A stretch of 33,706 bases of DNA from a virus. The notes under the pieces were generated by a model. It had not been told where the DNA came from. It saw only the letters and a program-made list of their open reading frames with translations, and made no database searches. The position numbers and the translations under genes are program-made. This document shows positions 14,946 through 33,706 of the stretch, piece by piece. Within the stretch, counting starts at the first letter, position 1. Each line of letters starts with the position of its first letter. The DNA lies in the IMG/VR virus record IMGVR_UViG_3300045988_099363; one strand, 5' to 3'.

Positions 14946-15679
14946 TGGAAAAAGTATGGTCAAATGAATACATGGAGGGCTTCCAATTTGGGGGCTTTTC
15001 GTCTATTGATAATGGTTTTTATTTGACAGAACACGATGCACCAACACCAAAAGAAAAAGAAATAATTGAGGACATTCCTTTTATGCAAGGAGTTTACGAC
15101 TTTTCTTTCTTACTTGGGGAGCGTGTTTTTAGTAATCGTAAGATTACATTTGAGTTAGTTCGTCCGCTTGAACCTTACGAGGTAAGGAAACAAGTTCAAG
15201 CAGAAATGAAGAACGCACTAATGATTAAGGGAGTTGGTAGACTTGAAGATACCTACCTTAAAGAATTAAACGCTTATTGGTCTGGAAAATGTGAGAGCGT
15301 GACATTTTCAGATAGTGAAAGTCATTGGACTTTGAAAGCCACGGTAGTGTTTGAATGTTATCCGTTTGCCTTGAAAAATTCAGATGGTTATTCAGATAAA
15401 TTTGATGATGAATATTTTACTGACGGTGTAGACCAATGGACTGGCTTTTATATTCAAAACTATAAAAATGTTTTGCTGATAAATGACGGTATAAATGCAG
15501 TCAGTCCGCAGATTGAAGCGGATAGCAACATGACGATTAAATTTAATGATGAATTTATTGAAGTTAAAAAGGGCAAAAATAAAGATTTGTTTTTCAAACT
15601 TCAAAAAGGAGAAAATCGTTTTTCAATTTATGGAAATGGTCATATCAGTTTCTATATTGAAACGGAGGTCATGTACTAA
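14945..15679 (+). CDS. Distal tail protein (Dit)
   Basis: 244 aa immediately after TMP. Confidence 0.65.
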   Translation: MEKVWSNEYMEGFQFGGFSSIDNGFYLTEHDAPTPKEKEIIEDIPFMQGVYDFSFLLGERVFSNRKITFELVRPLEPYEVRKQVQAEMKNALMIKGVGRLEDTYLKELNAYWSGKCESVTFSDSESHWTLKATVVFECYPFALKNSDGYSDKFDDEYFTDGVDQWTGFYIQNYKNVLLINDGINAVSPQIEADSNMTIKFNDEFIEVKKGKNKDLFFKLQKGENRFSIYGNGHISFYIETEVMY

Positions 15680-17115
15680 TGTATAAAGCTTACTTAAAAG
15701 AGACTGACGACAGCCGAGATAAAAAGACGATACACGAACCGTTAAATTATGGTAATAAACTATCATCTGGCGAGTTAAAAGTATCGCTAGAGGGTTTGGG
15801 GATATCAACATTTGAATGTTCCTTGTCAATCGCTAACAGCTTGTATGGCAAGACTAAGCCTATTACTAACATGATTTGTGTGTTAGATTCAAACGGAGAA
15901 AAAGTTTTTCATGGCAGGATTGCAAAGATTACTAAAAGCATGACATCAAGCGGAGAATTTTCAGAAAAAATCTTATGTGAGGATAGAAAAAGTTATCTGT
16001 ATGACAGTACTCAAAAATATTTAAAACCGACGATTATGTCAGTAAGAGAGTACTTGCAAAGATTGCTAGATGAGCATAATCGACAAGTTGAACCATTCAA
16101 ACAGATGCGTTTAGGGAATGTCACGGTAGGAGATAGTGAACAAATTTACCGTGGTATCGGCTATTACAAGACAGCTGAATTGATTAAAGACAGGTTATTA
16201 GACCGATTAGGTGGATATCTAGTTTTGAGAGAGGACACACAAGGAAGTTTGATACTTGACTATTTAAAAGATTATGGCGAAGTGTCAAGAACACCATTAC
16301 AAATTACACGTAACTTGCGGTCAGCTACTCGTGATATTGACATCTCAGAGCTTGCCACACGTATTGTGCCACTTGGGCAAGAAATTGAAACAAGTGAAAC
16401 TGTTGAAATCGGTACAGACTTTTCAAGACCTAAACATACAATAGCAGATGTGAATGGTGGAGTTGACTACTTACAAGACTTTGAATTGATTGCTGAGTTT
16501 GGTATTATCCAAAAAAATGTTGATTTTCAAAATGTGACAGACCATAACGTGTTAAAAAGACGTGGCGAGGAGTATTTAAAAAATCAGCGTGCCATGCTTG
16601 TGAGTTGGACGGTTGAAGTGATTGAGCTTGGCTTGATTGATAAACGTTATGAGCTGATACAGGTTGGTAATAGTTATCCAATTGAAAACCCTATGCTTTA
16701 TGGTGCTGAGACCTTACAAGTTACTGAAAAAACAGTAAATATTCTTGAACCTCAAAGAATTGTACTGACAATTGGAAGTAGCAAAAAGACCTTATCGAGC
16801 TTTCAACAAAGTTATTCAAACTTACAATATACTTTAAGCGACACACTATCTAGCGTAAATTTTCAGATGAAAAGCACAAATGAAGTTTCTCAAAAACTTG
16901 AAGGAACTAACGTCACTTTGACTGAAACAGTTGGAGAATTAGAAAATACAAAAATTTTAGCAGAAGGTAACCAAACTAAGATAGAAAGTGTTAAAATAGA
17001 AACAAGTACTATTAAAGAAAATTTAGACGAAACTATCAGAATAAATGATGAACGTTCTAAATTATTATTACAACAAATTGAAGATTTGAAAAATCAAATT
17101 AACAATTTGAAATAA
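15679..17115 (+). CDS. Tail-associated protein / baseplate hub (Tal-like) with a C-terminal coiled coil
   Basis: 478 aa after Dit; heptad-like C-terminus (LLLQQIEDLKNQINNLK). Confidence 0.6.
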   Translation: MYKAYLKETDDSRDKKTIHEPLNYGNKLSSGELKVSLEGLGISTFECSLSIANSLYGKTKPITNMICVLDSNGEKVFHGRIAKITKSMTSSGEFSEKILCEDRKSYLYDSTQKYLKPTIMSVREYLQRLLDEHNRQVEPFKQMRLGNVTVGDSEQIYRGIGYYKTAELIKDRLLDRLGGYLVLREDTQGSLILDYLKDYGEVSRTPLQITRNLRSATRDIDISELATRIVPLGQEIETSETVEIGTDFSRPKHTIADVNGGVDYLQDFELIAEFGIIQKNVDFQNVTDHNVLKRRGEEYLKNQRAMLVSWTVEVIELGLIDKRYELIQVGNSYPIENPMLYGAETLQVTEKTVNILEPQRIVLTIGSSKKTLSSFQQSYSNLQYTLSDTLSSVNFQMKSTNEVSQKLEGTNVTLTETVGELENTKILAEGNQTKIESVKIETSTIKENLDETIRINDERSKLLLQQIEDLKNQINNLK

Positions 17116-17130
17116 AAAAAGGGGGATTGA

Positions 17131-17898
17131 ATGGCATTTGAACAAAACGGTCAAAAGTATTATGATACTCAGCCGACAGGCGAGGTAAATACAACCGTAA
17201 AGTATATCGACCCAACAGATGTGCCTGAGATTGACGAAGAAATTAAAAACGGTGTCATCAGTAAATTAGCGCAAGATATTGCAAGTTGGATTCGTACAAA
17301 AATGTGGCGCAGACACGTTCGTGAAGCACTTGCGAGGTCAGTTGAATATTTCAGCGTATTATTTAACAAGTTGAAAGAAATCGTAGAAAGTAACACAATT
17401 AGGCAAGACAACGTAGAAAAACGTCAGTCTAAACTAGAGCGTGATTTTATTTCAGTAACTTCTGGTGCTACCGTAGACAGCGAGGTTATAATCGCACGTG
17501 GTAGTGATGTCTATGGTCAGTTTAACACGTTAGACTTGCGACTTGAAAACATTGAAAAAATTATGGCTAACTTTGTTCCATCTGGATTTATCGTCAAAAT
17601 CAATCATAATCTTGGTAGAAATCCTACCGTTACGGTTAAAAAATATGATTGGGCGATTGGTACAGAAACAAATGGCTTTGATACAGCACCAGATGGATTG
17701 TTTGGCGGTGGCGCTGTTGAAACGGTACCAACTAATTTAATCTATGCTAGTGGTGTAGTCTATGTGCATATGCCAGCAGTTTACAGACAAAGTGGCGAGT
17801 TCATTATTCAATCTGATACAAAGTTGTTGCTTATTGATGGTATTCATACACTTAATTTTGCGGTTGAAGGAGGTCTCATAAATGGAAAAATCGATTGA
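17131..17898 (+). CDS. Putative tail fibre / receptor-binding protein
   Basis: 255 aa, position after Tal; no recognisable catalytic motif. Confidence 0.35.
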   Translation: MAFEQNGQKYYDTQPTGEVNTTVKYIDPTDVPEIDEEIKNGVISKLAQDIASWIRTKMWRRHVREALARSVEYFSVLFNKLKEIVESNTIRQDNVEKRQSKLERDFISVTSGATVDSEVIIARGSDVYGQFNTLDLRLENIEKIMANFVPSGFIVKINHNLGRNPTVTVKKYDWAIGTETNGFDTAPDGLFGGGAVETVPTNLIYASGVVYVHMPAVYRQSGEFIIQSDTKLLLIDGIHTLNFAVEGGLINGKID

Positions 17899-18000
17899 TA
17901 AATTCAGAGTTTTATCTCAGGTTGAAGCTGATACAAACATTGATAAAGATACGCAAAAAACTATCATAAAAGATGAAAAAGAAAAAGAGGAGAATTGAAA

Positions 18001-18435
18001 ATGGAAAAAATTTATAGAGGTATGGCAAACGGTGCTGAGACTATTGACCGTAACTTTAATAATGGATATGGTCAAAAAGTCGGAGACATTCATATCAGTA
18101 TTGATAGTTCAAATCCTAGCGCAAGATTTGGCGGTACTTGGGAAAGAATTGCTAAAGGGCAAGCGATTGTCGGTGTAAATGAAAGTGATTCAGACTTTTC
18201 AACTCCTGAAAAAACAGGCGGTGAAAAAACTCACGCTTTGACAGCTGAAGAAAATGGTCCGCATACTCACTCTTATAAAATGACAGGAAACAATAATGCT
18301 GTAAAAGTTGAAGCCTCAACCACTTTTGGTACTAGTCAATCAGTCAATACAAACACTGGAACATCAGGGAATGGGACACCACACAACAACTTACAACCGT
18401 TTTTCACTCTTTATATTTGGAAACGTACAGCTTAG
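18001..18435 (+). CDS. Tail-collar-domain fibre protein
   Basis: Motif G-E-x-T-H-x-L-T-x-E-E ... PHTH ... PHNNLQPF resembles phage tail-collar domains. The ATG at 18001 with RBS aaagaggag is preferred over the TTG at 17995. Confidence 0.5.
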   Translation: MEKIYRGMANGAETIDRNFNNGYGQKVGDIHISIDSSNPSARFGGTWERIAKGQAIVGVNESDSDFSTPEKTGGEKTHALTAEENGPHTHSYKMTGNNNAVKVEASTTFGTSQSVNTNTGTSGNGTPHNNLQPFFTLYIWKRTA

Positions 18436-18438
18436 AAA

Positions 18439-18741
18439 GTGGTATTTATGTGGGTAATTGACTTTTTCTACTTTCTAAAAGAATGGTGGTTCATCATATC
18501 TATGGTAATTGTCGGTATTGCATCTTTTAAAAAAGGGATTGATAGTATCAATAGTAATTTGAAAGATGTGGTTCATGAAATATCAAAATTCAACGAAAAA
18601 ATAAAATTATCTGAAAAGGATAGAGAAAGAATCCACGTAGAACTTGAAACACACAGAGAAAGGCTTGATAATCATGAGTTGAAATTTGCGAGCTATAATG
18701 AAAAAATAGCTATATTATTTAAGGAGAATGAAAAAAAATGA
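18439..18741 (+). CDS. Small membrane protein with a C-terminal coiled coil (possible lysis-associated or holin-accessory protein)
   Basis: N-terminal hydrophobic segment, charged helical tail; overlaps the holin start; GTG (18439) or ATG (18448) start. Confidence 0.4.
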   Translation: MVFMWVIDFFYFLKEWWFIISMVIVGIASFKKGIDSINSNLKDVVHEISKFNEKIKLSEKDRERIHVELETHRERLDNHELKFASYNEKIAILFKENEKK

Positions 18742-19007
18742 ACTTAGATTTTATTTTAGACAAGTATGTACCAGTCATCATGGTTGCGACTTTGACAATT
18801 GGATATATTATCAAAGAAACACCTGCACTTAAAAAAGTTGCTAACGCCTATATTCCTTTGATTGTTACGATTACAGGGGCTTTACTTGGTGTCATTATCA
18901 GTAGTTTATCAGTTGAATCATTCGTCTATGGTGCGGTTAGTGGCCTAGCTTCAACTGGCTTACATCAAGCGTTCACTCAGCTTTTAAACATTGGAAAGGG
19001 GGAGTAA
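18738..19007 (+). CDS. Holin
   Basis: 89 aa with two or three hydrophobic helices and a charged C-terminus, immediately upstream of the lysin gene. Confidence 0.75.
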   Translation: MNLDFILDKYVPVIMVATLTIGYIIKETPALKKVANAYIPLIVTITGALLGVIISSLSVESFVYGAVSGLASTGLHQAFTQLLNIGKGE

Positions 19008-22514: not shown

Positions 22515-22700
22515 TCAGAATGGTTCTTTTGTAATTTCTAAGAGACGGAGTAAGACACTTGTTTCAGTTTCTTTTTTATCTTTTCCGTTTCGTCGTTTAC
22601 CAAGGATTTTAGCTTTTTCGTTTAAAAGATTTGTAAGTTTATCATATTCTTCTAGCGTTAAGACAAAACCCTTTGCTCGTGTTCCGTTTTTGTTAGCCAT
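22515..22700 (-). CDS. Small basic protein (61 aa), hypothetical
   Basis: ORF with Lys/Arg-rich centre. Confidence 0.45.
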   Translation of the reverse strand: MANKNGTRAKGFVLTLEEYDKLTNLLNEKAKILGKRRNGKDKKETETSVLLRLLEITKEPF

Positions 22701-23270: not shown

Positions 23271-23996
23271 TTAAAATTCCTCAATAATTTCTACTTTTTT
23301 AATTGGTTGCGTTGGTTGTGTTGGTTGTGTTGGTTGTGTTGGTTGTGGTGTCTGGTTAGCAGTTTCCATGAAACCTGATTCACTTTCATCATAGATACCC
23401 GAATAGACTTGCGGGAAACACTCACGGAGGGCATGAGTTAGCGCTACTTTTCTAATCATTGTAGCAGGTTTGCTATCCCAAACGTTAGTACCCATGGTTT
23501 TGCCGTCTGAACGTGTTTTCTTTTTGTCAAGACCCTTGGCATCTTTTACCTTGTCACAATTTTCGTCAAGGACATAAGCGCCATTATAATATTCGTAAAA
23601 GCTGATAGCTGTTTCATAGCCGAATCTTTCAACTTTAGCCCATGCACCGATAATTTTATCAGTTGGTAATTTTATAGAACCTTTGCGCTCTGCAATCTCT
23701 CCATCTTTAGTTAATACCACAAGACCTGTGGTTGGTGGTGCAAAATTGGGGTTGCGTGATGCTAAGATTCCCTCGCCTGATTTAGTTACCGCAAGACGTC
23801 CATCTTGGGCATAATACATCTCCCCAGTAAAAGGGTTTAGACCTCGTTGTCTTGCGATTTCTAAATCAAGCATTAGCTCTGTGTCTTTTTTGCCATCAGG
23901 AACTTTTAAAAAAGTCCGTAAGTTTGTAACTGTTGGTGCAATCGGTTGAATTTCTTGTACCGTATTGCCTTGATGTTCGATAATGTCCGTGTTCAT
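23271..23996 (-). CDS. Putative single-strand annealing recombinase (RecT/Erf/Sak-like) with a C-terminal (QPT)4 repeat
   Basis: 241 aa; position beside an SSB-like gene and a resolvase gene. The ATG at 23996 with RBS aaaggag is preferred over the upstream ATG at 24011. Confidence 0.4.
   Translation of the reverse strand: MNTDIIEHQGNTVQEIQPIAPTVTNLRTFLKVPDGKKDTELMLDLEIARQRGLNPFTGEMYYAQDGRLAVTKSGEGILASRNPNFAPPTTGLVVLTKDGEIAERKGSIKLPTDKIIGAWAKVERFGYETAISFYEYYNGAYVLDENCDKVKDAKGLDKKKTRSDGKTMGTNVWDSKPATMIRKVALTHALRECFPQVYSGIYDESESGFMETANQTPQPTQPTQPTQPTQPIKKVEIIEEF
23303..23347. repeat. 9-bp tandem repeat TTGGTTGTG x5, encoding (QPT)n on the minus strand
   Basis: Read directly. Confidence 0.9.
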
Positions 23997-24038: not shown

Positions 24039-24067
24039 ATTATATACTTATTAAGTAAAGTTGTCAA
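24039..24067 (-). promoter_or_regulatory. Consensus early promoter on the minus strand: TTGACA-17-TATAAT with spacer actttacttaataagta
   Basis: Reverse complement read directly. Confidence 0.6.
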
Positions 24068-24070
24068 GCG

Positions 24071-25027
24071 TTATTTTTCAAGTTTCACATCAGCAATTTC
24101 TTTCATTTGAGTAAGTAACTCATTCAATTTTAGAGAATTTTCAGGTGTTTTTTCATAAGTCACCGTCATGGTAATCTTTGTAAGTCCTTGGACTTCAAGT
24201 ATTTTCTTTTCTAATACACTTTGTTTGAGTTCTTCCTCCTCACGTTGCTTATGCTCTAATTCACGTTGTTTTAGTTCCTCAGCTTGTTTTGCTAAACGTT
24301 CTTCATTTTCACGCATGATTAATTTTTGACGTTCTAATTCACGTTGTTCGTCTGCTTTACGTTGTTTCTCTTTTTCAATTCGTTCGGCAATTTCTGCTTC
24401 AAGTTGAGAATAATCAAAGTCGATTTTTTCGTAAACATCGGTAGCGGGCATACCATCTTCAAACATGGCGACATATTTAGCGAAAGATAACTCTAGGCTG
24501 ATAGCCTTATTTTTTATATTTTCAATATCGGCATTTTTTCGGTCTTTGTCAGCTTGCAATTTTTTCAGTAATTCAGTAAGTTTTTTGTCGGTTTTGAGTT
24601 TTTTCGTGTTTTTAAAAATTTCATCATCAACATCTTTTAACTCAATATTCAATGAAAGATTTTCAATTAAGTTTACAACACGACTTTCCCATTCTGTGCG
24701 TTCTTTTAAATCACGTTCTTTTTTTGTTTCATCAAGATTTTCAAAGAATTTTTCATATGAACTTTTAATTTCATCTCTGATTTTTTTGTATTCATTGTTT
24801 TCTTCTTCAACTAAATCAAGTGCTTTTTGGCGATTTTTAGTAATTTCTGTACTGATTGCATTAATTAAATTATTGGCGGTAGTTTTTTCTTTTTTAGCAA
24901 ACTTAAAATCATCATCAGTTACAATGACAATACTCTCAATCTTTTTAGCGTGTTCCTTTGCCTTTTCGATTGTTAAGCGAACGGTATCATTTTTAATAAT
25001 TTCAGTTGTTTTAGTTGTGTTTGTCAT
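24071..25027 (-). CDS. Glu/Lys-rich coiled-coil protein (318 aa), possibly recombination-associated
   Basis: Highly charged heptad-like sequence; sits upstream of the annealing-protein gene. Confidence 0.5.
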   Translation of the reverse strand: MTNTTKTTEIIKNDTVRLTIEKAKEHAKKIESIVIVTDDDFKFAKKEKTTANNLINAISTEITKNRQKALDLVEEENNEYKKIRDEIKSSYEKFFENLDETKKERDLKERTEWESRVVNLIENLSLNIELKDVDDEIFKNTKKLKTDKKLTELLKKLQADKDRKNADIENIKNKAISLELSFAKYVAMFEDGMPATDVYEKIDFDYSQLEAEIAERIEKEKQRKADEQRELERQKLIMRENEERLAKQAEELKQRELEHKQREEEELKQSVLEKKILEVQGLTKITMTVTYEKTPENSLKLNELLTQMKEIADVKLEK

Positions 25028-25038
25028 GTTTTTTCTCC

Positions 25039-25239
25039 TTAATTTTTCCAGTTTGGAAGTTTAGTCCAAGTCTCATGCCACGTGCTGAGTGTCAAACCTA
25101 ACTCAGAATCAATGTATTCATGTGCTTCAGCAATAGTTGCAACTGAACCATCACGCATCTTTTTACGTGTTTCTGAGTTGTTACGCTCAATTTCGGCTTT
25201 TAAAGCTCTTTGTTTTTTGCTTTTTAAAAATTTAAACAT
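25039..25239 (-). CDS. Hypothetical small protein (66 aa)
   Basis: ORF with ATG start; the upstream sequence (ggataaaagaca) gives only a weak ribosome-binding site. Confidence 0.4.
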   Translation of the reverse strand: MFKFLKSKKQRALKAEIERNNSETRKKMRDGSVATIAEAHEYIDSELGLTLSTWHETWTKLPNWKN

Positions 25240-25250
25240 TGTCTTTTATC

Positions 25251-25547
25251 CTATCTAAAAAAATTCTTGGTGTAAACATCGCTATACGTTATATCACGCT
25301 TTTCAACGTATGACATAACATGTAAAATCGCATTTGCGATGTTGTTGTTCGGGTTGTTTTTCTCTCTTATCAACTGAGATAAATTTGAAGATATACCAGA
25401 TGCACTTTTTCTATAATGCCCGTACTCGGTACGCTTATAAATCATTTTAGCTACATCAGTATTATATAAACCATGATATGACTGAAAATCTTTGAAGTTA
25501 CTCCAAAAGATTTTACCTGCGGTTGACCCTCCCTCAATTTTTATCAT
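25251..25547 (-). CDS. Hypothetical protein; likely real start MIKIEGG at 25547 (98 aa); the 113-aa version from 25592 lacks an RBS
   Basis: RBS ggag upstream of the ATG at 25547; start choice is uncertain. Confidence 0.45.
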   Translation of the reverse strand: MIKIEGGSTAGKIFWSNFKDFQSYHGLYNTDVAKMIYKRTEYGHYRKSASGISSNLSQLIREKNNPNNNIANAILHVMSYVEKRDITYSDVYTKNFFR

Positions 25548-25638
25548 GTTGTTTCTCCATTTCTTTTTTACAGTCAGCAATAGCATCTTCATAGCTATTA
25601 TAATGTTTTTTAGTGATTGAATTATAATATAGCGTCAT
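25534..25638 (-). CDS. Small upstream ORF (34 aa) with a strong RBS aaaggag, overlapping the next gene's start by 14 nt
   Basis: ATG at 25638, stop overlapping the downstream ATG region; below the ORF-track size cutoff. Confidence 0.35.
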   Translation of the reverse strand: MTLYYNSITKKHYNSYEDAIADCKKEMEKQHDKN

Positions 25639-25670
25639 GTGTAACTCCTTTATATTTACCTTATATCTAT

Positions 25671-25698
25671 ATTATACACTTATTAAGTAAAATGTAAA
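25671..25698 (-). promoter_or_regulatory. Early promoter TTTACA-16-TATAAT with the conserved spacer ttttacttaataagtg
   Basis: Reverse complement read directly. Confidence 0.55.
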
Positions 25699-25728
25699 GC
25701 AAAAAAAAGAAAGTTTTTCAGCTTTTTT

Positions 25729-27222
25729 TTAATCAGCTGTAAAACTTCCATTTTCGTCAAACGTACCATAAAGTGTAAGTGTCGGCTTAATACTTTTTCC
25801 ATTGCTTAACTTATTTTCTCTAGCTGTGATAGTTTCCGATGCCACAACTTTTAAATCTTTGTTATTTTTATCAATTTTTGTCACCGAAACATTAATATTT
25901 TTGGAAGCGCCTAATGATAAAACTGCCATCTTTTCTTTTAGTTTCATGCCTGAGAAGTATTTTTCATTCTTTTCGACAACTTTATCACTCCAAAGTTTTG
26001 GGATGAAAGAGTATTTTTTCCATGCTTTAGGTATTAAATCTCTAATTTCTTTTGTTTCCTCGCCTATTACTTCAGAGATTGGTGTTGAAAGCGTTGAAAG
26101 TCGTTCCATGTAATTTTCGTGATGTCCTGCTTTTACATATAAATAATAAAGGTAAGAAAGTTCAGTTTCGTATTCTCCATTTATAGCATTAGAAATTTCT
26201 TCTTTTGTCAAGTGTTCGATTAATGAATTACCTTCAAATTTGAAAACGATGAAGCGCCTTAAAACATCTCGGTCATTTCTCAACTCCAAGTCAGCATTAG
26301 TAGTTTCAATCGTGAAAGCCGAGTTGACACGTATATCGCCATTAAGCTCCACAATGTCACGTGTTCGCCCTGTGTGTGTTTTGATAGATTGTACACGTCT
26401 TTCAATTTCTTGCTTGGATGCATCCTTTTTTAGTTCTGGTCGATTCCAAATTTCAGCATTAGTCCGTGCATACTCACGCTCTGCCCTAACACGTGGGGCG
26501 TTGTTCATGTCGTCATTGATGTCCTCTGTAAACGTCCTATGTTGCCAGAAATTTGAAAGTAGTGTAATGAGTACATCTTTACCAAAACCTCCCTCTAGGT
26601 TAAGCCACAACGCTTTATCACGTGGTCTTTCTCTAGTAAGCTCTAGTAAATCGAAAAATGCAAACTCATTTGTCAAGGCATCATCTGAATTATAAAGTTC
26701 GCTGTAATGACTTGTTAGACGATTGACGACTTCTAACTTTCTAGGGTCACACTCAGGCAAGGTGTTACCCTCTCCATTGTAAATTATCTTTGTTCGTGTA
26801 AAAGTGAAGCTATTGATTTTCTTTTCAACACGGTTGACCTCTCTTAATTTTAGATATTTAAATAATTCAAGACATCCACTTCTATCCATACTGTTTTTGG
26901 TAAAAAAATCGCTATACGTGATATTTAACCTAAAAACATGTTTAGGAAAAATATGAGTTCCGTCTGATTCAGGTATGACCTCGACATAACACTTTCTGAT
27001 ATTTTCATCTATCACTTTAAAGGCTTGTAAAGACTGAAAATCTTTAGAAGATGTCTCTTTTTCTCGGTCAATCTCATCACAAATTTTTTTAAAGGTATCT
27101 AAAATTGGGCTTGCATAAGGCGAGTTTTTGATTTTATCAACATCAAGAGTTTTTAAAATATTAGGATAAAGTTCTTTTACTTTACCTGCTGACCAAATTT
27201 CAATTAATTTTTTTGTTATCAT
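25729..27222 (-). CDS. Large early protein (497 aa), putative replication initiator / primase-helicase-like (degenerate P-loop-like GGFGKD)
   Basis: Long ORF with RBS ggaaggg; function uncertain. Confidence 0.3.
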   Translation of the reverse strand: MITKKLIEIWSAGKVKELYPNILKTLDVDKIKNSPYASPILDTFKKICDEIDREKETSSKDFQSLQAFKVIDENIRKCYVEVIPESDGTHIFPKHVFRLNITYSDFFTKNSMDRSGCLELFKYLKLREVNRVEKKINSFTFTRTKIIYNGEGNTLPECDPRKLEVVNRLTSHYSELYNSDDALTNEFAFFDLLELTRERPRDKALWLNLEGGFGKDVLITLLSNFWQHRTFTEDINDDMNNAPRVRAEREYARTNAEIWNRPELKKDASKQEIERRVQSIKTHTGRTRDIVELNGDIRVNSAFTIETTNADLELRNDRDVLRRFIVFKFEGNSLIEHLTKEEISNAINGEYETELSYLYYLYVKAGHHENYMERLSTLSTPISEVIGEETKEIRDLIPKAWKKYSFIPKLWSDKVVEKNEKYFSGMKLKEKMAVLSLGASKNINVSVTKIDKNNKDLKVVASETITARENKLSNGKSIKPTLTLYGTFDENGSFTAD

Positions 27223-27268
27223 GTTTTCCCTTCCTGTGTTATAATCAAGTTATAATAATTTACTTTGA

Positions 27269-27292
27269 GCCAGTTTGCCGACTGGCTTTTTT
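27269..27292 (+). terminator. Plus-strand (antisense-oriented) intrinsic terminator gccagt-ttgccg-actggc + T6 between two minus-strand genes, preceded by a plus-strand extended -10 (TGtTATAAT, 27240-27248)
   Basis: Perfect 6-bp stem and T run read directly. Confidence 0.5.
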
Positions 27293-27296
27293 GTGT

Positions 27297-28085
27297 TCAG
27301 CTAACTAACTCATCTTGTTCAACTAATGGTAAGTAGCCGTTTTTCTTCAAAACTTCATAAAGGAACTTACGCCCTTTTTGTTTCCAAGTCGTTGTAATTG
27401 ATGTCCGTGCAATACCTTTGCTATCTACAAAGTCACTTGTACGACTTCCAATGTAACCTTTTCCCATGTATTTCGAGTAAATTACCCATTGCTTGTTAAC
27501 TTTGCGTTGAATGCGCAAGTCATGCAAGATGCGATTAAATGATACTGCGCTATATCCGTAATCCTGTGCTATTTGAGTTGTCAGGATGTCGTCAGGACTT
27601 TCAAGAATTAGGTCGAGATAAGTTGCTTTTTCTCTGACTTCCTCTAACTCAACTTGCAACTGCTGTTTATCAAATTCAAGTGACTTGATTTGTTCTCCAG
27701 CTTGGATAAGTAAGTCAGCTAAACCATTGCCATGTAGAACGTCTTGTGCTTTCTTGTCTGTCATGTATGCGCCGTGTTTGCGGATAGTTGGGAGTACTTC
27801 GCTTGTAACCCAACGTTTGAATTGTTTTGCTTCTGGTTTTTTAGACTTCAAGATAAGCGAGTACAAACCTGATTCATTGATGATAGTGATATTTTGACTA
27901 CCTCCAAGGGTGTCACTTTTCGTTACCCCCTTGTCTTCATCGTCTACATGGTCTGAAAGTGCTTTTCTTGAATTTGAATACCCAAGAATATCAGCGACAT
28001 CTTTTCCGACAAACCAGTGTTCGTCATTGATTGTGATAATGCGGACGTCTTGCCCGCTGAAATTGAAATTTTGTAATTGATTCAT
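27297..28085 (-). CDS. Phage antirepressor (N-terminal Bro-N domain, C-terminal KilA-C-like domain)
   Basis: FNFSGQDVRIITINDEHWFVGKDVADILGY matches Bro-N. The true ATG is at 28085 with RBS aaggag (the ORF-track start at 28109 is a TTG). Confidence 0.75.
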   Translation of the reverse strand: MNQLQNFNFSGQDVRIITINDEHWFVGKDVADILGYSNSRKALSDHVDDEDKGVTKSDTLGGSQNITIINESGLYSLILKSKKPEAKQFKRWVTSEVLPTIRKHGAYMTDKKAQDVLHGNGLADLLIQAGEQIKSLEFDKQQLQVELEEVREKATYLDLILESPDDILTTQIAQDYGYSAVSFNRILHDLRIQRKVNKQWVIYSKYMGKGYIGSRTSDFVDSKGIARTSITTTWKQKGRKFLYEVLKKNGYLPLVEQDELVS

Positions 28086-28105
28086 GTTTCTCCTTTCTAT
28101 AATGT

Positions 28106-28330
28106 TCAAGAAACTCGAACTTGCAGATTAAAAAAATATTGTCCAATTTCTTCGACTGGGATGTTTAACAACTCGCAAGACTTTTTGATATCTGTATCTT
28201 TCCATCTTACTTTATTGTTAAGCTTTAGAGATAGAGAGCGTTCTGACAACCCTAATGCTAGAGCAAAGTTATATTGAGTACCGTACTCTTCTGTAATTTT
28301 GCCTAGTAGTTTAGAATAATTAAAACTCAT
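28106..28330 (-). CDS. Cro-like HTH (XRE family) transcriptional regulator
   Basis: 74 aa; HTH segment QYNFALALGLSERSLSLKLNN; strong RBS; operator palindromes upstream. Confidence 0.6.
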   Translation of the reverse strand: MSFNYSKLLGKITEEYGTQYNFALALGLSERSLSLKLNNKVRWKDTDIKKSCELLNIPVEEIGQYFFNLQVRVS

Positions 28331-28343
28331 GTGGAACCTCCTT

Positions 28344-28363
28344 TTTTATTATTAGTTCAAATA
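28344..28363. promoter_or_regulatory. Operator-like perfect palindrome AGTTCAA-atatc-TTGAACT between the promoter and RBS of the cro-like gene; more TTGAAC half-sites at 28398, 28431
   Basis: Read directly. Confidence 0.55.
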
Positions 28364-28382
28364 TCTTGAACTTTATATTTTA

Positions 28383-28411
28383 ATTATATACCTATTTTTG
28401 AACGTCGTCAA
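28383..28411 (-). promoter_or_regulatory. Promoter TTGACG-17-TATAAT driving the cro-like gene and antirepressor operon
   Basis: Reverse complement read directly. Confidence 0.55.
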
Positions 28412-28537
28412 CACAAAAAGGTAAAATTATTTGAACTTTATTTATACCTACGCCTATACTAATTCCTCTAAATTTAACCATAACATCTCACTTTCTAAAT
28501 GTTGCTATTTTAATATTTTTTAATGTCAACAAAACAG

Positions 28538-28708
28538 TCATTTATCATGTTTACCATCATAATGATTACTAATCAATGCGGTAACAATAGATAATACTAT
28601 TACTGATACCCAAGAATAAATATTTGCGTTACTCATAAATACTGTACTTACTACCCAAAATGCCGTATATACCGCAAAATATAAACAAAAATTACTTATA
28701 AATTTCAT
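28538..28708 (-). CDS. Small hydrophobic membrane protein (56 aa, two predicted TM helices); not in the ORF track
   Basis: ATG with strong RBS aaggaggt; TAATG overlap with the upstream 44-aa gene. Confidence 0.5.
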   Translation of the reverse strand: MKFISNFCLYFAVYTAFWVVSTVFMSNANIYSWVSVIVLSIVTALISNHYDGKHDK

Positions 28709-28842
28709 TAAATTACCTCCTTAGTAACATCACATCTCTTACAACTCTTATGCTTTTTATCTACCCAGTAATACCAATCATGTTTAAAACATAGTAATTG
28801 TTTTATTTTTCTTTTAATTACTTCTAATAACGGTTCTTTCAT
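28708..28842 (-). CDS. Tiny Cys/His-containing protein (44 aa; C-x2-H ... C-x2-C zinc-ribbon-like); not in the ORF track
   Basis: ATGA overlap with the upstream gene, RBS gaggt, translated by hand. Confidence 0.45.
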   Translation of the reverse strand: MKEPLLEVIKRKIKQLLCFKHDWYYWVDKKHKSCKRCDVTKEVI

Positions 28843-29099
28843 TCTATTACCTCGTAAGTCTTTTTGAAAATATCAGGCTTGCATGGATAAAATTCGCCAT
28901 CAACACCTTTGATGATAAAATCGTTATTTGATATTTCCATTACACCTTCTAATGTCTTGATGCCTGGTAAACCGTTAGGCATTTCATCATAATGAATCCA
29001 AGAATCGCCTACAAATTCTTTACATTTTCGGTATGACCTTGCGCTACACATTTTTAATTGCATCACTTCGACTTCAACTGGTTTTTTACGTGCTTTCAT
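28839..29099 (-). CDS. Hypothetical protein (87 aa), first gene of a three-gene translationally coupled cassette
   Basis: ATG at 29099 with RBS aaaggag (the ORF-track start at 29138 lacks an RBS). Confidence 0.5.
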   Translation of the reverse strand: MKARKKPVEVEVMQLKMCSARSYRKCKEFVGDSWIHYDEMPNGLPGIKTLEGVMEISNNDFIIKGVDGEFYPCKPDIFKKTYEVIE

Positions 29100-29209
29100 T
29101 TTTAAATCTCCTTTATTTACTATCAAAACGCCACACACGCCATTTTAACAATCTGGTACATATTTACACCAAAACAATATTAAAACGTCGTCAGCGTTGA
29201 ATCTCGACC

Positions 29210-29401
29210 TCACAGGTGCTTTGAAATCAATTTACCTCTTTTGGCTGTTGTGCCTAAACCTTTAGCGTTTCGCTTAACAGCATCTGCATCCCCTTTAATT
29301 AAATTTCTAATTTCATACAAGCAAAATTCTTCATAGGTCAAATTATGACCTGTTTGTAAGTTGTGTAATCGTCTTCTCAACTCAATTTCTGGGTCTTTCA
29401 T
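29210..29401 (-). CDS. Hypothetical protein (63 aa)
   Basis: ATGA coupled to the upstream gene. Confidence 0.45.
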   Translation of the reverse strand: MKDPEIELRRRLHNLQTGHNLTYEEFCLYEIRNLIKGDADAVKRNAKGLGTTAKRGKLISKHL

Positions 29402-29907
29402 AGCTCTACCTCGATTTTCTCATAATTTCCAGTTTGCATGCTGTCGATTTCTTCTTGGGTGATTTTTTTTGCGCGATTTATATTGCTTGTTAAATATCCA
29501 TCATTTGTTAAAAACAAATTTAAATATCCAATTAAATCGCTGCCTACATCTTCAAGTTTTATCTTATTCTTCAAATAGAACAGCTGCGGTTTTTCGACTG
29601 TGTAGCCGTCTATCCATGCACGAGCGAAGTCTTCTGCGTTATCATCTTTCCAATGAATTGCTTTTTCATTTCCTTCTCCAGCGACATTGTGAGTACTACA
29701 CATTAAACCGAATTGGATACCATGTCCTTTTTCTTTCAATTCTGATATATAATCCCCCACATGCTCAGGCACGACTGGAATGGCTTGCTGTGGTTGCCAA
29801 TCTTTAAAATGTTCTGCTAGAAAACCGCCTAGAAATAACTCATGACCGTTATGTGTTCTGTCATGTGGACTAACTTTATTAAGTAGCTCTTTTTCAAATT
29901 CACTCAT
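29398..29907 (-). CDS. Hypothetical acidic protein (169 aa)
   Basis: ORF with RBS aaggag. Confidence 0.5.
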   Translation of the reverse strand: MSEFEKELLNKVSPHDRTHNGHELFLGGFLAEHFKDWQPQQAIPVVPEHVGDYISELKEKGHGIQFGLMCSTHNVAGEGNEKAIHWKDDNAEDFARAWIDGYTVEKPQLFYLKNKIKLEDVGSDLIGYLNLFLTNDGYLTSNINRAKKITQEEIDSMQTGNYEKIEVEL

Positions 29908-29919
29908 TTCATCTTCTCC

Positions 29920-30507
29920 TTAATTAATCCAATCAATCTCAGGATTCCCTGTATAACCTTTTTCCCAAATGAACCAGGCATAACAAGCTGCACTTGATTT
30001 ATATTTTTCAAATTCGCCATTCATAGCACATATCAATCTAGAACTTGCCACATATATCTTTTTAGGCGGAAATTCATCAAAAAAGATACGTCTTGACTTG
30101 CTTTCTAAAAACTGTATTTTCAAAAACATAGCCACTTTGTTTCCGTCTGGAATTATTTCAAGCGAATGCTTAACAAAATCAAGCGCTATTTTGTATGGTG
30201 GATTAGTGATGATGTCCCCATCAAATTTTTCAACCGTAAAGAAATCCTTGACTGTTCCAAATCCACGATCGACTAGATCATGACTTTCAACTTGATATCC
30301 TTCGCCTTGTAAGGATTTAGATATATGACCCTCGCCACATGAAGGTTCTAGCACTCTACTTGAGAATTTTTCTTTTTCAAGCAATAACTCAACTGCTTTT
30401 GGGTCTGTAGCATAGTAGTCGTTAACCTCCCTTTTCAAACTGCTATGATTACTAGCTCCTAAAACAGCAAATGTGGTTGCTTTATTGCCTGTCCAATCTT
30501 TAGTCAA
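29920..30507 (-). CDS. Putative N6-adenine DNA methyltransferase (small phage-type MTase)
   Basis: SAM-binding-like LEPSCGEGHI and catalytic NPPY motifs; TTG start with strong RBS aaggag. Confidence 0.6.
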   Translation of the reverse strand: MTKDWTGNKATTFAVLGASNHSSLKREVNDYYATDPKAVELLLEKEKFSSRVLEPSCGEGHISKSLQGEGYQVESHDLVDRGFGTVKDFFTVEKFDGDIITNPPYKIALDFVKHSLEIIPDGNKVAMFLKIQFLESKSRRIFFDEFPPKKIYVASSRLICAMNGEFEKYKSSAACYAWFIWEKGYTGNPEIDWIN

Positions 30508-30721
30508 TAATCTTCTCCTTAATTAAATACCGCTCTAACTCAGTATCTTTAGTCGTCAAAGCTCGCTCCATGCTATTGATGCGGTTGTAAATCCGTATCT
30601 GCTCACGTTTAACCTTGCTAGTCTCTAATGTCGACATAAGCGTAACAGCACCGAATAAGCAAAGCAATACGAGTATCACGTATAGCCATGATGTACTGAT
30701 TGAATTTTGTTTTTTAGTCAT
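30500..30721 (-). CDS. Small membrane protein (73 aa, one TM helix)
   Basis: Hydrophobic stretch WLYVILVLLCLFGAVTLM; overlaps the MTase start. Confidence 0.5.
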   Translation of the reverse strand: MTKKQNSISTSWLYVILVLLCLFGAVTLMSTLETSKVKREQIRIYNRINSMERALTTKDTELERYLIKEKIID

Positions 30722-30776
30722 TTCTATACCACCCTTTCAAATTTTCCTCAATCTTCTTTTACTTGATTTTTTTAGT

Positions 30777-30974
30777 TCATTTTGCATATTTTTCAATTTC
30801 AGAAAGGTTAGAAATTAGCTTTTCGGCTGTTTCTAACGTCATGTTTTTAATGCTATAAGTGCCTTTTCGATACTTTGTTATGACAAGCTCAGCGATGCCA
30901 GTTATTTTTGAAATGCGATAACCCGTGACATTAATGTTAAGAATTTCTTGTACTTCGTTTACTAAATTTTGCAT
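30777..30974 (-). CDS. Small putative HTH DNA-binding protein (65 aa)
   Basis: Predicted helix-turn-helix GYRISKITGIAELVITKYRKG. Confidence 0.4.
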   Translation of the reverse strand: MQNLVNEVQEILNINVTGYRISKITGIAELVITKYRKGTYSIKNMTLETAEKLISNLSEIEKYAK

Positions 30975-31052
30975 TTTTTATTTCTCCATTTTTTTATTTA
31001 TTTTATAGCCATTCATTGACTTCTTCGGCTGTTTCAACGTGGTAAATTTTAA

Positions 31053-31148
31053 TTATTTTCTCTTGCTCCAATATTCTACATTTTTCCCGCTATGCTTATC
31101 TAATTTTGATAGTAGTTTGGCATGGTCACTTGGTTCGAATTTTGTCAT
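31053..31148 (-). CDS. Tiny ORF (31 aa) with RBS aggaag between promoter 31184-31212 and the HTH gene
   Basis: Translated by hand; below the ORF-track cutoff. Confidence 0.25.
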   Translation of the reverse strand: MTKFEPSDHAKLLSKLDKHSGKNVEYWSKRK

Positions 31149-31183
31149 GGCATCTCACTTCCTTTCTTTTTTTCTATACTTAT

Positions 31184-31212
31184 ATTATACCATAATTATT
31201 AAGCAATATAAG
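31184..31212 (-). promoter_or_regulatory. Extended -10 promoter (aTGgTATAAT) on the minus strand
   Basis: Reverse complement read directly. Confidence 0.45.
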
Positions 31213-31216
31213 TATT

Positions 31217-31408
31217 TTAGTATTTAATTTTCATCTTTTCGGCTCTATTCCCATCTTCAAAATAGTAAATGCCGTCCCTTGTTTCTTCTTCAACCATGGA
31301 AAGGACTTGCTCGCTTATCCCTTTGCCTTTATATAGTCTCAAATTATAATCAATCTCGATTAAGATTGAATCCAATAATTCTGCTTTTCTTTCTGCTGAC
31401 ATCTTCAT
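31217..31408 (-). CDS. Hypothetical protein (63 aa)
   Basis: Strong RBS aaggagg. Confidence 0.55.
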   Translation of the reverse strand: MKMSAERKAELLDSILIEIDYNLRLYKGKGISEQVLSMVEEETRDGIYYFEDGNRAEKMKIKY

Positions 31409-31429
31409 TTTGTCGTCCTCCTTTTATTT

Positions 31430-31987
31430 TTAATCTCTATTTCTAGTTGGTGCAATCAATACCTGAACCACCAATGCATTTAAACAGAAAAATGTAATTT
31501 TTAGTGGTTCATTTTCAGAGTTGTATTCTAATTTTAGATTGCTATCTGTAAATTCTAACTCAGTGTTATCATTAATCAAAGCTTTTACAAACTCAAATGC
31601 AGGTTTGACGGTCTTTGTGTTAAAATAAAATTCTTTTTCTCCTAACATAAGATGAAATGTTTTATCTGATACGGCCTTAGCCTTGGAAAATTCTTTTATT
31701 AAGTTCCAGATGTCATCACAAGTGCCATTGTTTTCAGTTTTTGAATCGAAAAGTTTATGAATGTTTGGATAACTGTATGCCGAAACATTTTTGATGCCTT
31801 TTAAATTATTTAAAATTTTGGCATCTTTTACACCAATGTAATTGTCTTGGATTGTTCTGTATGCGATGAATCTATTAGTTGCATACTCAAAGATTTTTTC
31901 TTCTGTGTACTCTGTTACTGCACAATTCAAATTGTCTTCAATTTTACCGACAAATTTTGAAAGTTTTGCGCAAGTTGATTTTTTCAT
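31430..31987 (-). CDS. Hypothetical early protein (185 aa)
   Basis: RBS aaaggag, consensus promoter upstream. Confidence 0.55.
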   Translation of the reverse strand: MKKSTCAKLSKFVGKIEDNLNCAVTEYTEEKIFEYATNRFIAYRTIQDNYIGVKDAKILNNLKGIKNVSAYSYPNIHKLFDSKTENNGTCDDIWNLIKEFSKAKAVSDKTFHLMLGEKEFYFNTKTVKPAFEFVKALINDNTELEFTDSNLKLEYNSENEPLKITFFCLNALVVQVLIAPTRNRD

Positions 31988-32056
31988 GTCATTCTCCTTT
32001 TCGGCTTTGTGGTCATTTTCAGCCGTTGACCTTTTGTTGGTAGGCTTTTCTTTACC

Positions 32057-32085
32057 CTATATTTATATTATACAATACTTGTTAG
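32057..32085 (-). promoter_or_regulatory. Consensus early promoter TTGACG-17-TATAAT (spacer atacctaacaagtattg)
   Basis: Reverse complement read directly. Confidence 0.55.
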
Positions 32086-32132
32086 GTATCGTCAAGTAGT
32101 TTATGTAACTTTTTTATTTTTTTGTTTTAAAG

Positions 32133-32339
32133 TCAATTATTTTCAAACTGGAATATCGTTTGAGTTTTTTCAGAAAATAATACCAATGTTTTAACGCTAT
32201 CGTGCAAAACGGTTAAATTTTCTTTTAGAATCCTATCTTCTGGATTATAATACCCAATTTTTTTAGATTCTTTTTTTACGATGTCGCCTAATGTATAGGC
32301 GTTACGCCATTGCATCCCACGAGATTTGAAAATTGTCAT
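32133..32339 (-). CDS. Hypothetical protein (68 aa)
   Basis: RBS ggagg. Confidence 0.5.
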   Translation of the reverse strand: MTIFKSRGMQWRNAYTLGDIVKKESKKIGYYNPEDRILKENLTVLHDSVKTLVLFSEKTQTIFQFENN

Positions 32340-32424
32340 TGTATTATCCTCCGAATATTTTGATATTTAAAGCCATATGACGGAATCGAACCGTCTAACC
32401 ATTTATGGAGGTGTTGAATTTAGC

Positions 32425-32865
32425 TTATTTTTTTAAAAGTTTTTCTAAAAACTTAATATCTTCATCGCTGTAAGGTGAGTAATTTTTTGATGCTTCAAAG
32501 TCTCCTGATTCGTTAAGAACCAAAGCTACCTTTCTGAGACCTTTAACAAAATAGTAGATAGGTTTCTTTTGCCATTGTGTCACAAGTCCATTATCGATTA
32601 AGTTTTGGGCATGTTCACTTAAAATTTTTGTTTCATCTTTAGCTTTCATTTCTTCAAGCATTTGGATTTTTCTTTTTAACTTTGTAATTTCAGCTCCTAG
32701 TGTTTTCATCTTTACAGCGGGCTTGGTTTTATTATAAGCTTTTGCCTCCTCGTTTCTTTTTTCTAATTCAGCTAATTTTGATTTGAAATAATCTAAATTG
32801 TTCACGCTTGTTTTAGCTCCGATGGTTGCATAAGATGTATTCCCAATAACATGTGCATCTTTCAA
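32425..32865 (-). CDS. Hypothetical protein (146 aa). TTG start without RBS; in frame with the upstream 77-aa ORF across a single TAA
   Basis: See finding on the in-frame stop. Confidence 0.4.
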   Translation of the reverse strand: MKDAHVIGNTSYATIGAKTSVNNLDYFKSKLAELEKRNEEAKAYNKTKPAVKMKTLGAEITKLKRKIQMLEEMKAKDETKILSEHAQNLIDNGLVTQWQKKPIYYFVKGLRKVALVLNESGDFEASKNYSPYSDEDIKFLEKLLKK

Positions 32866-32889
32866 AGTTGAATTTTCGTTTTTAAATTC

Positions 32890-33123
32890 TTAAACTTTTT
32901 CAAGCATCTCGATTCTGTTTTCTTGTTTATCTTGCTCCACTGAGTTAGCTATAGACTTTCCGTAATGGCGTTTTAAATCTTTGTAGATATCTCTCCTGCC
33001 GATAATAACAGGTTGCCCAAATGGGATTAAATCGTGTTCTTTTCTAATGGCTTCCGTAATTCCATTTTGTTCTTCTTTTAGTGCTACCAATTTGTTTTTT
33101 GCACTTTCTAATTGTGATGTCAT
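32890..33123 (-). CDS. Hypothetical protein (77 aa), first early gene
   Basis: RBS aaggag, consensus promoter upstream. Confidence 0.55.
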   Translation of the reverse strand: MTSQLESAKNKLVALKEEQNGITEAIRKEHDLIPFGQPVIIGRRDIYKDLKRHYGKSIANSVEQDKQENRIEMLEKV

Positions 33124-33161
33124 TTTGTTTTCTCCTTGTTTGTGTTATTTACTCTATATAT

Positions 33162-33190
33162 ATTATATAATACACATTAGGTAAAGTCAA
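33162..33190 (-). promoter_or_regulatory. Consensus early promoter TTGACT-17-TATAAT (spacer ttacctaatgtgtatta)
   Basis: Reverse complement read directly. Confidence 0.6.
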
Positions 33191-33394
33191 GTGTTTTTTT
33201 CATATTTGTTTATTTTTTTATTTTATGTAAACTCATTTTCCTCAGACTGAATCAGACTATTGTAAAATAATAGAATTATGAGAAAATCACAAAGAAAAAA
33301 TACAATATATAAAAATCTTTATATCTATAAAGCGCTTTCATAAAAAATTATTTTCTCGCAAACCCACGCCGTCATTGAGAAAGTAACTAAGTAT

Positions 33395-33435
33395 ATATAT
33401 AAATATAATATATTATTTATATATATATATTATGT
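33395..33435. repeat. (AT)n / (TATA)n simple repeat tract, a candidate DNA-unwinding element
   Basis: atatatataaatataatatattatttatatatatatat read directly. Confidence 0.8.
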
Positions 33436-33706
33436 CTCTTTATAGCGTCTATAGGGGAAGCGCGAGGAAAGAAAATTTTCCATACTTTTTATATCCATGA
33501 ATTGTTCATCTGCATTAAATCACAATGAAACAAGAAAGGCCGTTAGTTGTTTTTGTCTAGGATAGCCCTAGATTGCAATTTAAGGCACCTCTCGCACGTC
33601 CTAGCGTTGTTTTGGCATAATTATGCCCCCTACATCTAAAGGGGCCAAAAACGGCCTTAAAATGCCTTGTATTGTTTTGCCCAAAAATAGTAATTTTTTA
33701 TCAGTA

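Follow-up and report, generated by a model that had tools for sequence, protein, structure and literature searches.

The phage genome analysed here, IMG/VR virus record IMGVR_UViG_3300045988_099363, carries a family of five promoter-like sites in its early region, and the conserved element in their spacers, between the -35 and -10 hexamers, is the subject of this report. The 33,706 nucleotides of the record (about 33.7 kb; hereafter the window) represent essentially one complete phage genome. The sites are described here as strong phage early promoters with a proposed repressor site in the spacer, the candidate repressor being a small helix-turn-helix (HTH) protein that resembles Aca11. The analysis shows sequence features, with their statistics and conservation, and the homology of the protein; that the promoters are active, that a protein binds and represses them, and which protein does so, we infer.

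The window is organised into rightward late genes (~2.2 kb to 19.7 kb), which encode terminase, portal, capsid, tail and lysis functions, and a long leftward early unit that runs from 33.2 kb to 19.8 kb. In addition to small genes without known function, the leftward unit contains methyltransferase, DUF1642, Cro-like, antirepressor, DUF1351, RecT and helicase-like genes. Each of the five sites combines a -35 and a -10 hexamer with a spacer element, a palindrome of 13-19 bp with the core TAC-N7-GTA. This element occurs in two registers: the 13-mer is located 3 nt from the -10 box in class A (P33190, P32095 and P31212) and 0 nt from it in class B (P25698 and P24067). The sites and their palindromes are as follows, with symmetry counted over the nine pairs of the longest, 19-bp form.

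33162..33190, minus strand: P33190, class A, with TTGACT, the 17-nt spacer ttacctaatgtgtatta and TATAAT.
33183-33171, minus strand: palindrome core of the P33190 spacer, TACCTAATGTGTA, a degenerate copy with 4/9 symmetric pairs.
32067..32095, minus strand: P32095, class A, with TTGACG, the 17-nt spacer atacctaacaagtattg and TATAAT.
32091-32073, minus strand: 19-bp near-palindrome of P32095, CGATACCTAACAAGTATTG, 6/9 pairs.
31184..31212, minus strand: P31212, class A register, with a weak -35 (TTATAT), a 16-nt spacer and a TGG-extended -10 (TATAAT).
31205-31193, minus strand: motif variant of P31212, TGCTTAATAATTA, 4/9 pairs.
25671..25698, minus strand: P25698, class B, with TTTACA, the 16-nt spacer ttttacttaataagtg and TATAAT.
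25689-25677, minus strand: palindrome core of P25698, TACTTAATAAGTG, adjoining the -10, 6/9 pairs.
24039..24067, minus strand: P24067, class B, with a perfect TTGACA, the 17-nt spacer actttacttaataagta and TATAAT.
24057-24045, minus strand: perfect 6-1-6 palindrome of P24067, TACTTAaTAAGTA, adjoining the -10, 7/9 pairs.

A first-pass annotation of this DNA had reported five minus-strand promoter-like sites, and all five are present. Its coordinates hold for four of them, while the site placed at 32057-32085 is 10 nt off its true position (32067-32095). The general form that it proposed, TTGAC(A/G/T)-17-TATAAT, describes three of the five and fails at P25698 (TTTACA-16) and at P31212, whose -35 is poor. 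The extended -10 that it placed at 31184-31212 is borne out as TGG-TATAAT, and the letters of the four spacer strings that it quoted were right.

All five family sites lie between genes, on the strand that encodes the early unit, 24-73 nt 5' of start codons. P33190 is the first promoter of the leftward unit and has a 77-aa gene downstream, P32095 is followed by a 185-aa gene, and P31212 is the closest promoter upstream of the 65-aa gene of the Aca11-like protein. P25698 is located after a 497-aa gene and before a variable gene slot, and P24067, which lies 3 nt past the stop codon of the DUF1351 gene, has the RecT gene downstream. The hexamers match the consensus at 11-12 of 12 positions in four of the five sites, with 16-17 nt between them, and the members with a weak -35 have a TGn extended -10. 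Between positions 19700 and 33706, six sites with at least 11 of 12 matching hexamer positions were observed, all of them on the early strand, compared with 0.87 +/- 0.99 (maximum 4) in dinucleotide shuffles. The five sites are very probably real promoters. Two of these six matches are not family members. One, a sixth strong promoter at 28411-28383 on the minus strand (P28411; TTGACG, 17 nt, TATAAT), has a spacer and palindromes that differ from those of the family. The other, a perfect-consensus look-alike at 21610-21582, lies inside an open reading frame (ORF) and lacks the motif; its hexamers decay in related phages, unlike those of the family. A second, overlapping promoter formed by the spacer TTTAC and a downstream TATAAG was also considered, and was rejected on its unfit spacing and final -10 base.

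Relatives of the window were gathered by exact-protein and homologue look-ups. They comprise near-identical variants (L007-L013), diverged members of the same clade (L016, L018, L019, L021, L022, L023, L050 and L051), one distant relative with 52% identity in the 497-aa protein (L014), and two other loci that have only the 65-aa gene in common with the window (L020 and L052). Clade members carry equivalent promoters at equivalent genomic positions, with recurrence in seven diverged relatives. P32095 is retained in the variant L012 despite deletion of both flanking genes. P31212, which is 78% identical to P32095 over 40 nt, has an orthologue with the -35 TTGACA in L018, and a deletion of ~15 bp has removed the -10 from its counterparts in L019, L022 and L023.

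The similarity of the spacers is well above what AT-rich sequence yields by itself, a comparison that the first-pass annotation had proposed as a check. With shifts allowed, the sum-of-pairs score of the five spacers is 109; shuffled spacers score 73.8 +/- 3.6, and real 17-mers of the window located 5' of TAnAAT score 67.3 +/- 4.9. None of 5000 trials reached 109, which lies 8-10 standard deviations over background, and the similarity between the two registers alone (class A against class B) is 63 versus 40.4 +/- 3.6. The degenerate pattern of the first-pass annotation, at one mismatch or fewer, has four matches, all in family promoters, versus 0.54 expected; since those very sites gave rise to the pattern, the test is circular. 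The accompanying statement that spacer sequence is normally unconstrained was too strong, as the spacer affects promoter strength (PMC3130263).

The resemblance extends beyond the spacer. The pattern TATAATATnnATATArGGTA has four matches against 0.14 expected and follows four of the -10 boxes in a fixed register. The regions of P32095 and P33190 (32057-32143 and 33152-33238) are 70% identical over 87 nt, a common stretch which includes an A-rich tract at about -60 to -42, and P24067 and P25698 are 91% identical over 35 nt. The conserved unit is therefore the whole promoter cassette, of ~50-90 bp, which consists of an A-rich UP-like tract (clear in class A), the -35, a spacer of 16-17 nt and TATAAT, followed by a discriminator rich in A and T and by a start region that is conserved as T(-1)A(+1)TArGGTA. 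Transcription is predicted to start at the A of T(-1)A(+1)TArGG.

The window and six relatives together supplied 16 unique class A and 11 unique class B promoters, over which information content was computed. Per position, the spacer holds 1.48 bits in class A and 1.71 in class B, compared with 1.42 and 1.09 for the -35 and 0.5-0.97 for the far flanks. Since the promoters have common ancestry, phylogenetic inertia contributes to these figures, and they do not represent independent samples. The paralogous cassettes have unrelated flanks and different downstream genes and retain the spacer, so that the flanks serve as an internal control. The spacer is likely to be under selection. A leader hairpin after the class A promoters was also considered: RNAalifold predicted none, and an explicit pair count gave 83% pairing with one compensatory pair, which 120 of 500 shuffles equalled. 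The hairpin was rejected, its pairing being no better than in the shuffled controls.

The spacer element is palindromic. Its 19-bp consensus in the relatives is CAATACyTAATAAGTATTG, and the best copies, such as CAATACCTAATAAGTATTG, extend over 19 bp, beginning with the final two bases of the -35 and ending directly before the -10, with 8/9 symmetric pairs (L018_3142 and L019_7386); it is through this extent that class A keeps TTG before TATAAT. Across window positions, 8/9 pairs occur at 0.015% and at least 7/9 at 0.2%, with a mean of ~2.4, and the five window copies score 7, 6, 6, 4 and 4. Matches to a position weight matrix of the motif at 14 bits or more are found only on the early strand and in promoter spacers, with the exception of one P31212 orthologue whose -10 is deleted. 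Beside a -10 box in 185,579 species genomes, the motif gave 22 scattered single matches, which is about the chance level, and none in Lactococcus or Streptococcus; an origin in a host regulon was rejected on these grounds.

The candidate binder is encoded within the same early unit.

30777..30974, minus strand: gene of the 65-aa HTH protein, homologous to Aca11 and to the N-terminal autorepressor domain of AcrIIA15.

The gene lies ~200 nt downstream of P31212 and also 3' of P32095 and P33190, on the same strand, and no minus-strand terminator is predicted between these promoters and the gene. It is present in every motif-bearing relative. The protein belongs to no Pfam family and to a PHROG of unknown function. 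Compared with solved structures over residues 7-62, it matches the AcrIIA15 N-terminal domain (8jfr; E 1.8e-6) and Aca11 (9lx2; E 7.5e-6), and it is 38% identical to Aca11. A structure model of the protein (pLDDT, the predicted local distance difference test, 86) has the AcrIIA15 N-terminal domain or Aca11 as all of its top nine fold matches, with template modelling (TM) scores of ~0.6. The HTH residues are nearly invariant over 35 homologues, and the conserved lysine K34 aligns with K31 of AcrIIA15, which makes an essential base contact (PMC10901769).

Aca11 and the AcrIIA15 N-terminal domain are anti-CRISPR-associated HTH proteins which, as dimers, repress strong promoters carried by mobile elements of Streptococcus and Staphylococcus; their operators lie inside the promoter of the anti-CRISPR gene. 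Aca11 binds a 24-bp inverted repeat located between TTGACA and TATACT, which are 17 nt apart, in two promoters with extensive mutual identity (PMC12658196), and gel shifts and reporter assays have borne out both its binding and its repression (PMC12282945). AcrIIA15 binds two repeats, the second of which (inverted repeat 2, IR2) falls in the interval from the -35 to the -10 (PMC10901769, PMC7104187). The class A spacers of the window are identical, in register, to the Aca11-regulated spacer at 9-11 of 17 positions, and 0.2% of window 17-mers reach 11.

The first-pass annotation had suggested a regulator site overlapping the promoter, and this suggestion gains computational support from the palindrome, its two registers, the unrelated flanks of the cassettes and the Aca11-like protein. 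We give about an even chance to the spacer palindrome being a protein operator. The proposal that the 65-aa protein binds it is more tentative and falls somewhat short of even. Several observations weigh against one or both proposals. The palindrome is uneven, with just 4/9 pairs in P33190 and P31212. It is also shorter than the 22-24 bp operator of Aca11, and a count on the spacer sequences found no 24-bp Aca11-style symmetry in these promoters. The homologue in L020 is 78% identical and has the same HTH residues, yet the motif is absent within 10 kb either side of it, and the upstream promoter of the L020 operon has a different 19-bp inverted repeat (TGATATAtttgtTATATCA). In L050 and L051 the protein has altered residues in the HTH region and the motif is unchanged, which leaves no covariation of protein and operator to draw on. 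Moreover, no recognisable anti-CRISPR or defence-related homologue was found among the small early proteins, and the true binder could be another of the small early proteins that are conserved. The L020 homologue, the lack of covariation, the shorter palindrome and the absence of a known anti-CRISPR (acr) neighbour are the reasons why the operator is placed at about one half and the identity of the binder lower.

Further searches concerned the alternatives to this protein and its surroundings. The Cro-like DUF739 protein was rejected as the binder: its gene and promoter are absent from relatives which keep the motif, and its own promoter has different palindromes. One alternative candidate is a 61-aa early protein (22515-22700), which looks by eye to be of the ribbon-helix-helix type, an impression for which searches gave no support. 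Inverted repeats of the L020 type are at background level in the window (7 matches versus 3.6 expected). The neighbouring small early proteins had no match among solved Acr structures and family libraries, and the diversity of Acr proteins is too great to exclude one.

The five sites are very probably host sigma-A (sigma-70-type) early promoters, arranged serially along the leftward unit. If the spacer palindrome is an operator, the following sequence of events may be envisaged. Upon infection the host polymerase would fire all five promoters. The palindrome would act as the operator of a small dimeric HTH repressor, of which the likeliest candidate is the 65-aa protein resembling Aca11 and the AcrIIA15 N-terminal domain, encoded behind P31212 in the same early unit. 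As the repressor builds up, it would fill the spacers, block the polymerase and lower the early burst, a feedback logic like that of Aca proteins at anti-CRISPR promoters.

The cassettes may have a further role in the exchange of early genes. Because they are repeated, they could act as homology patches for the gain, loss and swap of early cargo. A gene-order map of eight genomes shows fixed promoter positions and differing cargo genes behind the promoters. L016 and L018 have one hybrid first promoter, whose upstream part resembles the P33190 region and whose core and leader resemble P32095, and the window has both cassettes, flanking three genes; the hybrid is what recombination between the two cassettes would give. 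Homology between phages often ends at a cassette edge (e.g. 33151), and the variants flanking the -10, GTA/ATGT and GTG/ATAG, occur at either class B position in different phages. The indels of L011 and L012 join at other short sequences, those of L012 at an A-rich tract and ribosome-binding sites and not at promoter cores; the one clear cassette-bounded indel is that between L016/L018 and the window. On the minus strand, the single predicted terminator stem-loop of the early unit is at its end (19788-19763), and none is predicted further inside. This role as joints appears real and secondary. The suggestion of promoter duplication during module assembly, also made in the first-pass annotation, is strengthened by the fixed positions, the swapped genes and the hybrid cassette of L016 and L018.

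Other explanations of the conserved spacer were weighed. According to one of them, which we consider rather unlikely, the sites are polymerase-intrinsic 'uber-promoters', in which the spacer and the start region tune the strength and escape of the host RNA polymerase and no dedicated regulator is involved. Such a mechanism would account for the conservation of the whole cassette (A tract, spacer, discriminator and ATATArGGTA) instead of the palindrome alone, and it fits the fixed register of the downstream element. It has precedents in T4 early promoters, which show consensus regions beyond UP, -35, TGn and -10 (PMC2988021), and in the sensing of spacer sequence by sigma-70 (PMC3130263). The sequence AAGT(A/G) just 5' of the -10 is found also in the distant L014 and in a rightward site at 362-390, and class A spacers resemble, in register, a promoter spacer from Streptococcus. 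However, a contact with polymerase should be register-specific, whereas the 13-mer occurs in two registers, 3 nt apart relative to both hexamers; nor would such a contact be expected to show palindromic symmetry. In addition, the equally strong P28411 and the promoters of L014 and L020 have other spacers.

Alternatively, the cassettes could be recombination linkers or relics of duplication, similar to the promoter early stem-loops (PeSLs) of T4-like phages (PMC2839356, PMC4122927), with the spacer likeness inherited and the main role that of joints for shuffling early genes. The fixed positions with differing cargo in eight genomes, the hybrid cassette of L016 and L018 in place of the two that flank a three-gene segment in the window, the homology ending at cassette edges (33151) and the class B variants found at either position all agree with this, and the phage encodes a RecT protein. 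Inheritance alone, however, leaves unexplained why the similarity stops at the promoter edges and why conservation of the spacer equals that of the -35 in paralogues whose flanks are unrelated. Within a genome, paralogues resemble one another no more than orthologues do, which indicates that homogenisation is weak; the L012 indels join at the A-rich tract and ribosome-binding sites, and the early unit lacks a predicted minus-strand stem-loop of the terminator type. As the main explanation, shuffling is improbable in our view, and it is compatible with an operator in the spacer, not exclusive of it. A chance resemblance among AT-rich promoter-like sequences could draw on the facts that loose promoter-like matches are common (74 versus 52.5 expected), that the motif at two mismatches or fewer is at background (11 versus 9.5) and that TA-rich DNA yields many small palindromes. 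It is nevertheless extremely unlikely, given the near-perfect promoters (6 versus 0.87), the downstream pattern (4 versus 0.14), the spacer similarity at 8-10 standard deviations over two different nulls, and the recurrence of the sites at the same genomic positions in seven diverged relatives.

The operator interpretation provides a testable regulatory map, with five early promoters, one candidate operator and one candidate repressor, for a dairy- and gut-associated phage clade of which no member has been cultured or annotated. Should the Aca11-like protein bind these sites, Aca-type feedback would extend beyond anti-CRISPR operons and could run a whole lytic early programme, and the operator would mark the variable early genes as anti-defence candidates. 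A more far-reaching and quite improbable extension is that the cassettes are plug-in units, so that any genes captured between two of them would be wired automatically into a burst followed by shut-off via an Aca-family operator. In that case, the variable small genes would form an anti-defence reservoir in an uncultured clade of Lactococcus phages, and the palindrome beside a -10 could be used as a search key for anti-defence genes. The cassettes are also of interest for engineering in Lactococcus, as compact strong promoters with a possible off-switch.

Two observations point to Lactococcus as the host. Short patches of the window are 94-98% identical at the nucleotide level to Lactococcus phages, and a related contig is filed as a metagenome-assembled genome of Lactococcus cremoris. 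The matches to GenBank phages are confined to such short patches of the early region, with none for the late region. The window genome is also found in human-gut and other metagenome assemblies, in which the window ends are contiguous. Scans of IMG/VR seeded with the 497-aa protein, RecT and the 185-aa protein found no relatives, and motif scans of IMG/VR returned one unrelated sequence family and scattered single matches only. No integrase or CI-type repressor was noticed among the annotated products of the window, and the phage looks like a virulent siphophage of Lactococcus type.

Promoters outside the family have features of their own. P28411 drives a DUF739 Cro-like gene and a Bro/KilAC antirepressor gene (region 28098-28437), and GTTCAA-N5-TTGAAC palindromes surround it: one just past the -10 (28373-28357), one at the end of the Cro-like gene (28121-28098), and half-sites near the -35. 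Related phages lack this module, whose antirepressor part shares 84.5% identity with Lactococcus phage M51; the module has the look of a temperate-phage switch fragment imported into a phage without a noticed CI-type repressor. On the plus strand, 362-390 is a rightward site with a TGG-extended -10, TTACAAAATAAGTGGTATAAT, which includes the spacer motif's right half. L019, L016 and L018 retain this site, with TATACT there, and a deletion of ~95 bp has removed it in L022 and L023. At 27216-27288, also on the plus strand, TTATCA-18-TATAAT with a TG is followed ~25 nt on by an intrinsic terminator (27267-27288), and its product could be a ~45-nt antisense RNA facing the leader of the early gene for the 497-aa protein. 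A plus-strand TTGACT-17-TATAAT is located at 1830-1858, upstream of a tRNA (1929-2002, plus strand) which Rfam calls at 33.9 bits, just over threshold, and ARAGORN misses; a tRNA-Asn at 551-623 on the plus strand is called by both tools. Among the relatives, the two promoters of L014 at 3185-3230 and 9461-9506 have a common spacer start, TTGACAAGTTTTATT, and an upstream AAAAAAAATAAAnnTTAT tract, and similarity of spacers within a genome is therefore not unique to the clade of the window. The 42-kb contig L020, which encodes the 78% identical homologue, has a promoter family of its own, TTGACAACGTATA..., at 2700-18900.

Repeats and truncated elements were noted elsewhere in the window. Early and rightward units diverge from a non-coding stretch of ~1.2 kb, which contains four tandem copies of TTTTTTATCAGTAA (40-105, plus strand) and a 60-bp palindrome consisting only of A and T (33380-33441) and is a candidate for an origin or for a packaging region. 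At 32379-32395 on the minus strand, flanked by the early genes of a 146-aa and a 68-aa protein, GACGGTTCGATTCCGTC is a perfect tRNA T-arm-like sequence; neither tool calls a tRNA there, and the segment is deleted in variant L012. Five overlapping copies of the 9-bp repeat CCAACACAA (coding strand) are found at 23297-23358 near the 3' end of the RecT gene, and the length of RecT among related contigs is 236-250 aa. An 87-aa MethyltransfD12 ORF at 824-1087 on the plus strand is the truncated form of a 305-aa Dam-like gene, which is intact in L019, L022 and L023, and it is followed at ~1370-1500 (plus strand) by short tandem repeats of the ACAACGGTT and ACAGTTAGA types. Finally, a 31-nt repeat with 84% identity occurs at 25264-25294, in the C-terminus of a 113-aa protein, and at 26894-26924, inside the 497-aa protein, and both copies encode ITYSD(V/F)(Y/F)TKN.

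The concept of a dimeric HTH protein acting at a site that overlaps a lytic promoter has been described for the operator-promoter modules of the Cro/CI type in temperate lactococcal phages, e.g. the switch of TP901-1 (PMC7250872), of which the window has its own example at 28411-28383 (the DUF739 gene with its GTTCAA-N5-TTGAAC sites). The family described here has another motif and another candidate protein, and consists of five repeats in one direction without a divergent switch. With the T4 'uber' early promoters (PMC2988021), it shares near-perfect UP, -35 and -10 elements and extra conserved positions outside the hexamers; the T4 promoters serve to capture the host polymerase at the start of infection. 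In contrast to them, the extra element forms a palindrome here and takes either of two registers (0 or 3 nt from the -10) instead of a fixed one, and the TGn extended -10 is found only in members with a weak -35. The early promoters of T5 are also of the 'uber' type, with an extended consensus.

The PeSLs of T4-like phages (PMC2839356, PMC4122927) are likewise repeated strong sigma-70-type early promoters located between small variable genes. As with PeSLs, the cargo between cassettes differs among related phages, and at least one indel is cassette-bounded here. The cassettes differ from PeSLs in having a spacer palindrome and no terminator stem-loop, and in belonging to a 34-kb siphophage genome with a Gram-positive host, and other indels in this clade join at ribosome-binding sites or A tracts.

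The systems of Aca11 and AcrIIA15 show both differences and similarities. Their operators are 22-24 bp long (11-2-11) and serve one or two acr promoters; the palindrome of the window is 13-19 bp with an odd centre and another sequence, and it is found in five promoters over 9 kb, including the one for the recombination and replication genes. There is no known acr gene here, the phage appears virulent, binding is a prediction, and the L020 homologue has no motif nearby. In common with these systems, the window has a ~65-aa four-helix HTH protein, homologous by sequence and predicted fold, a palindrome between a consensus -35 and -10, and several mutually similar promoters. As in those systems, the regulator gene is located inside the early unit that it would regulate, and the logic expected of such an arrangement is a burst of transcription followed by shut-off.

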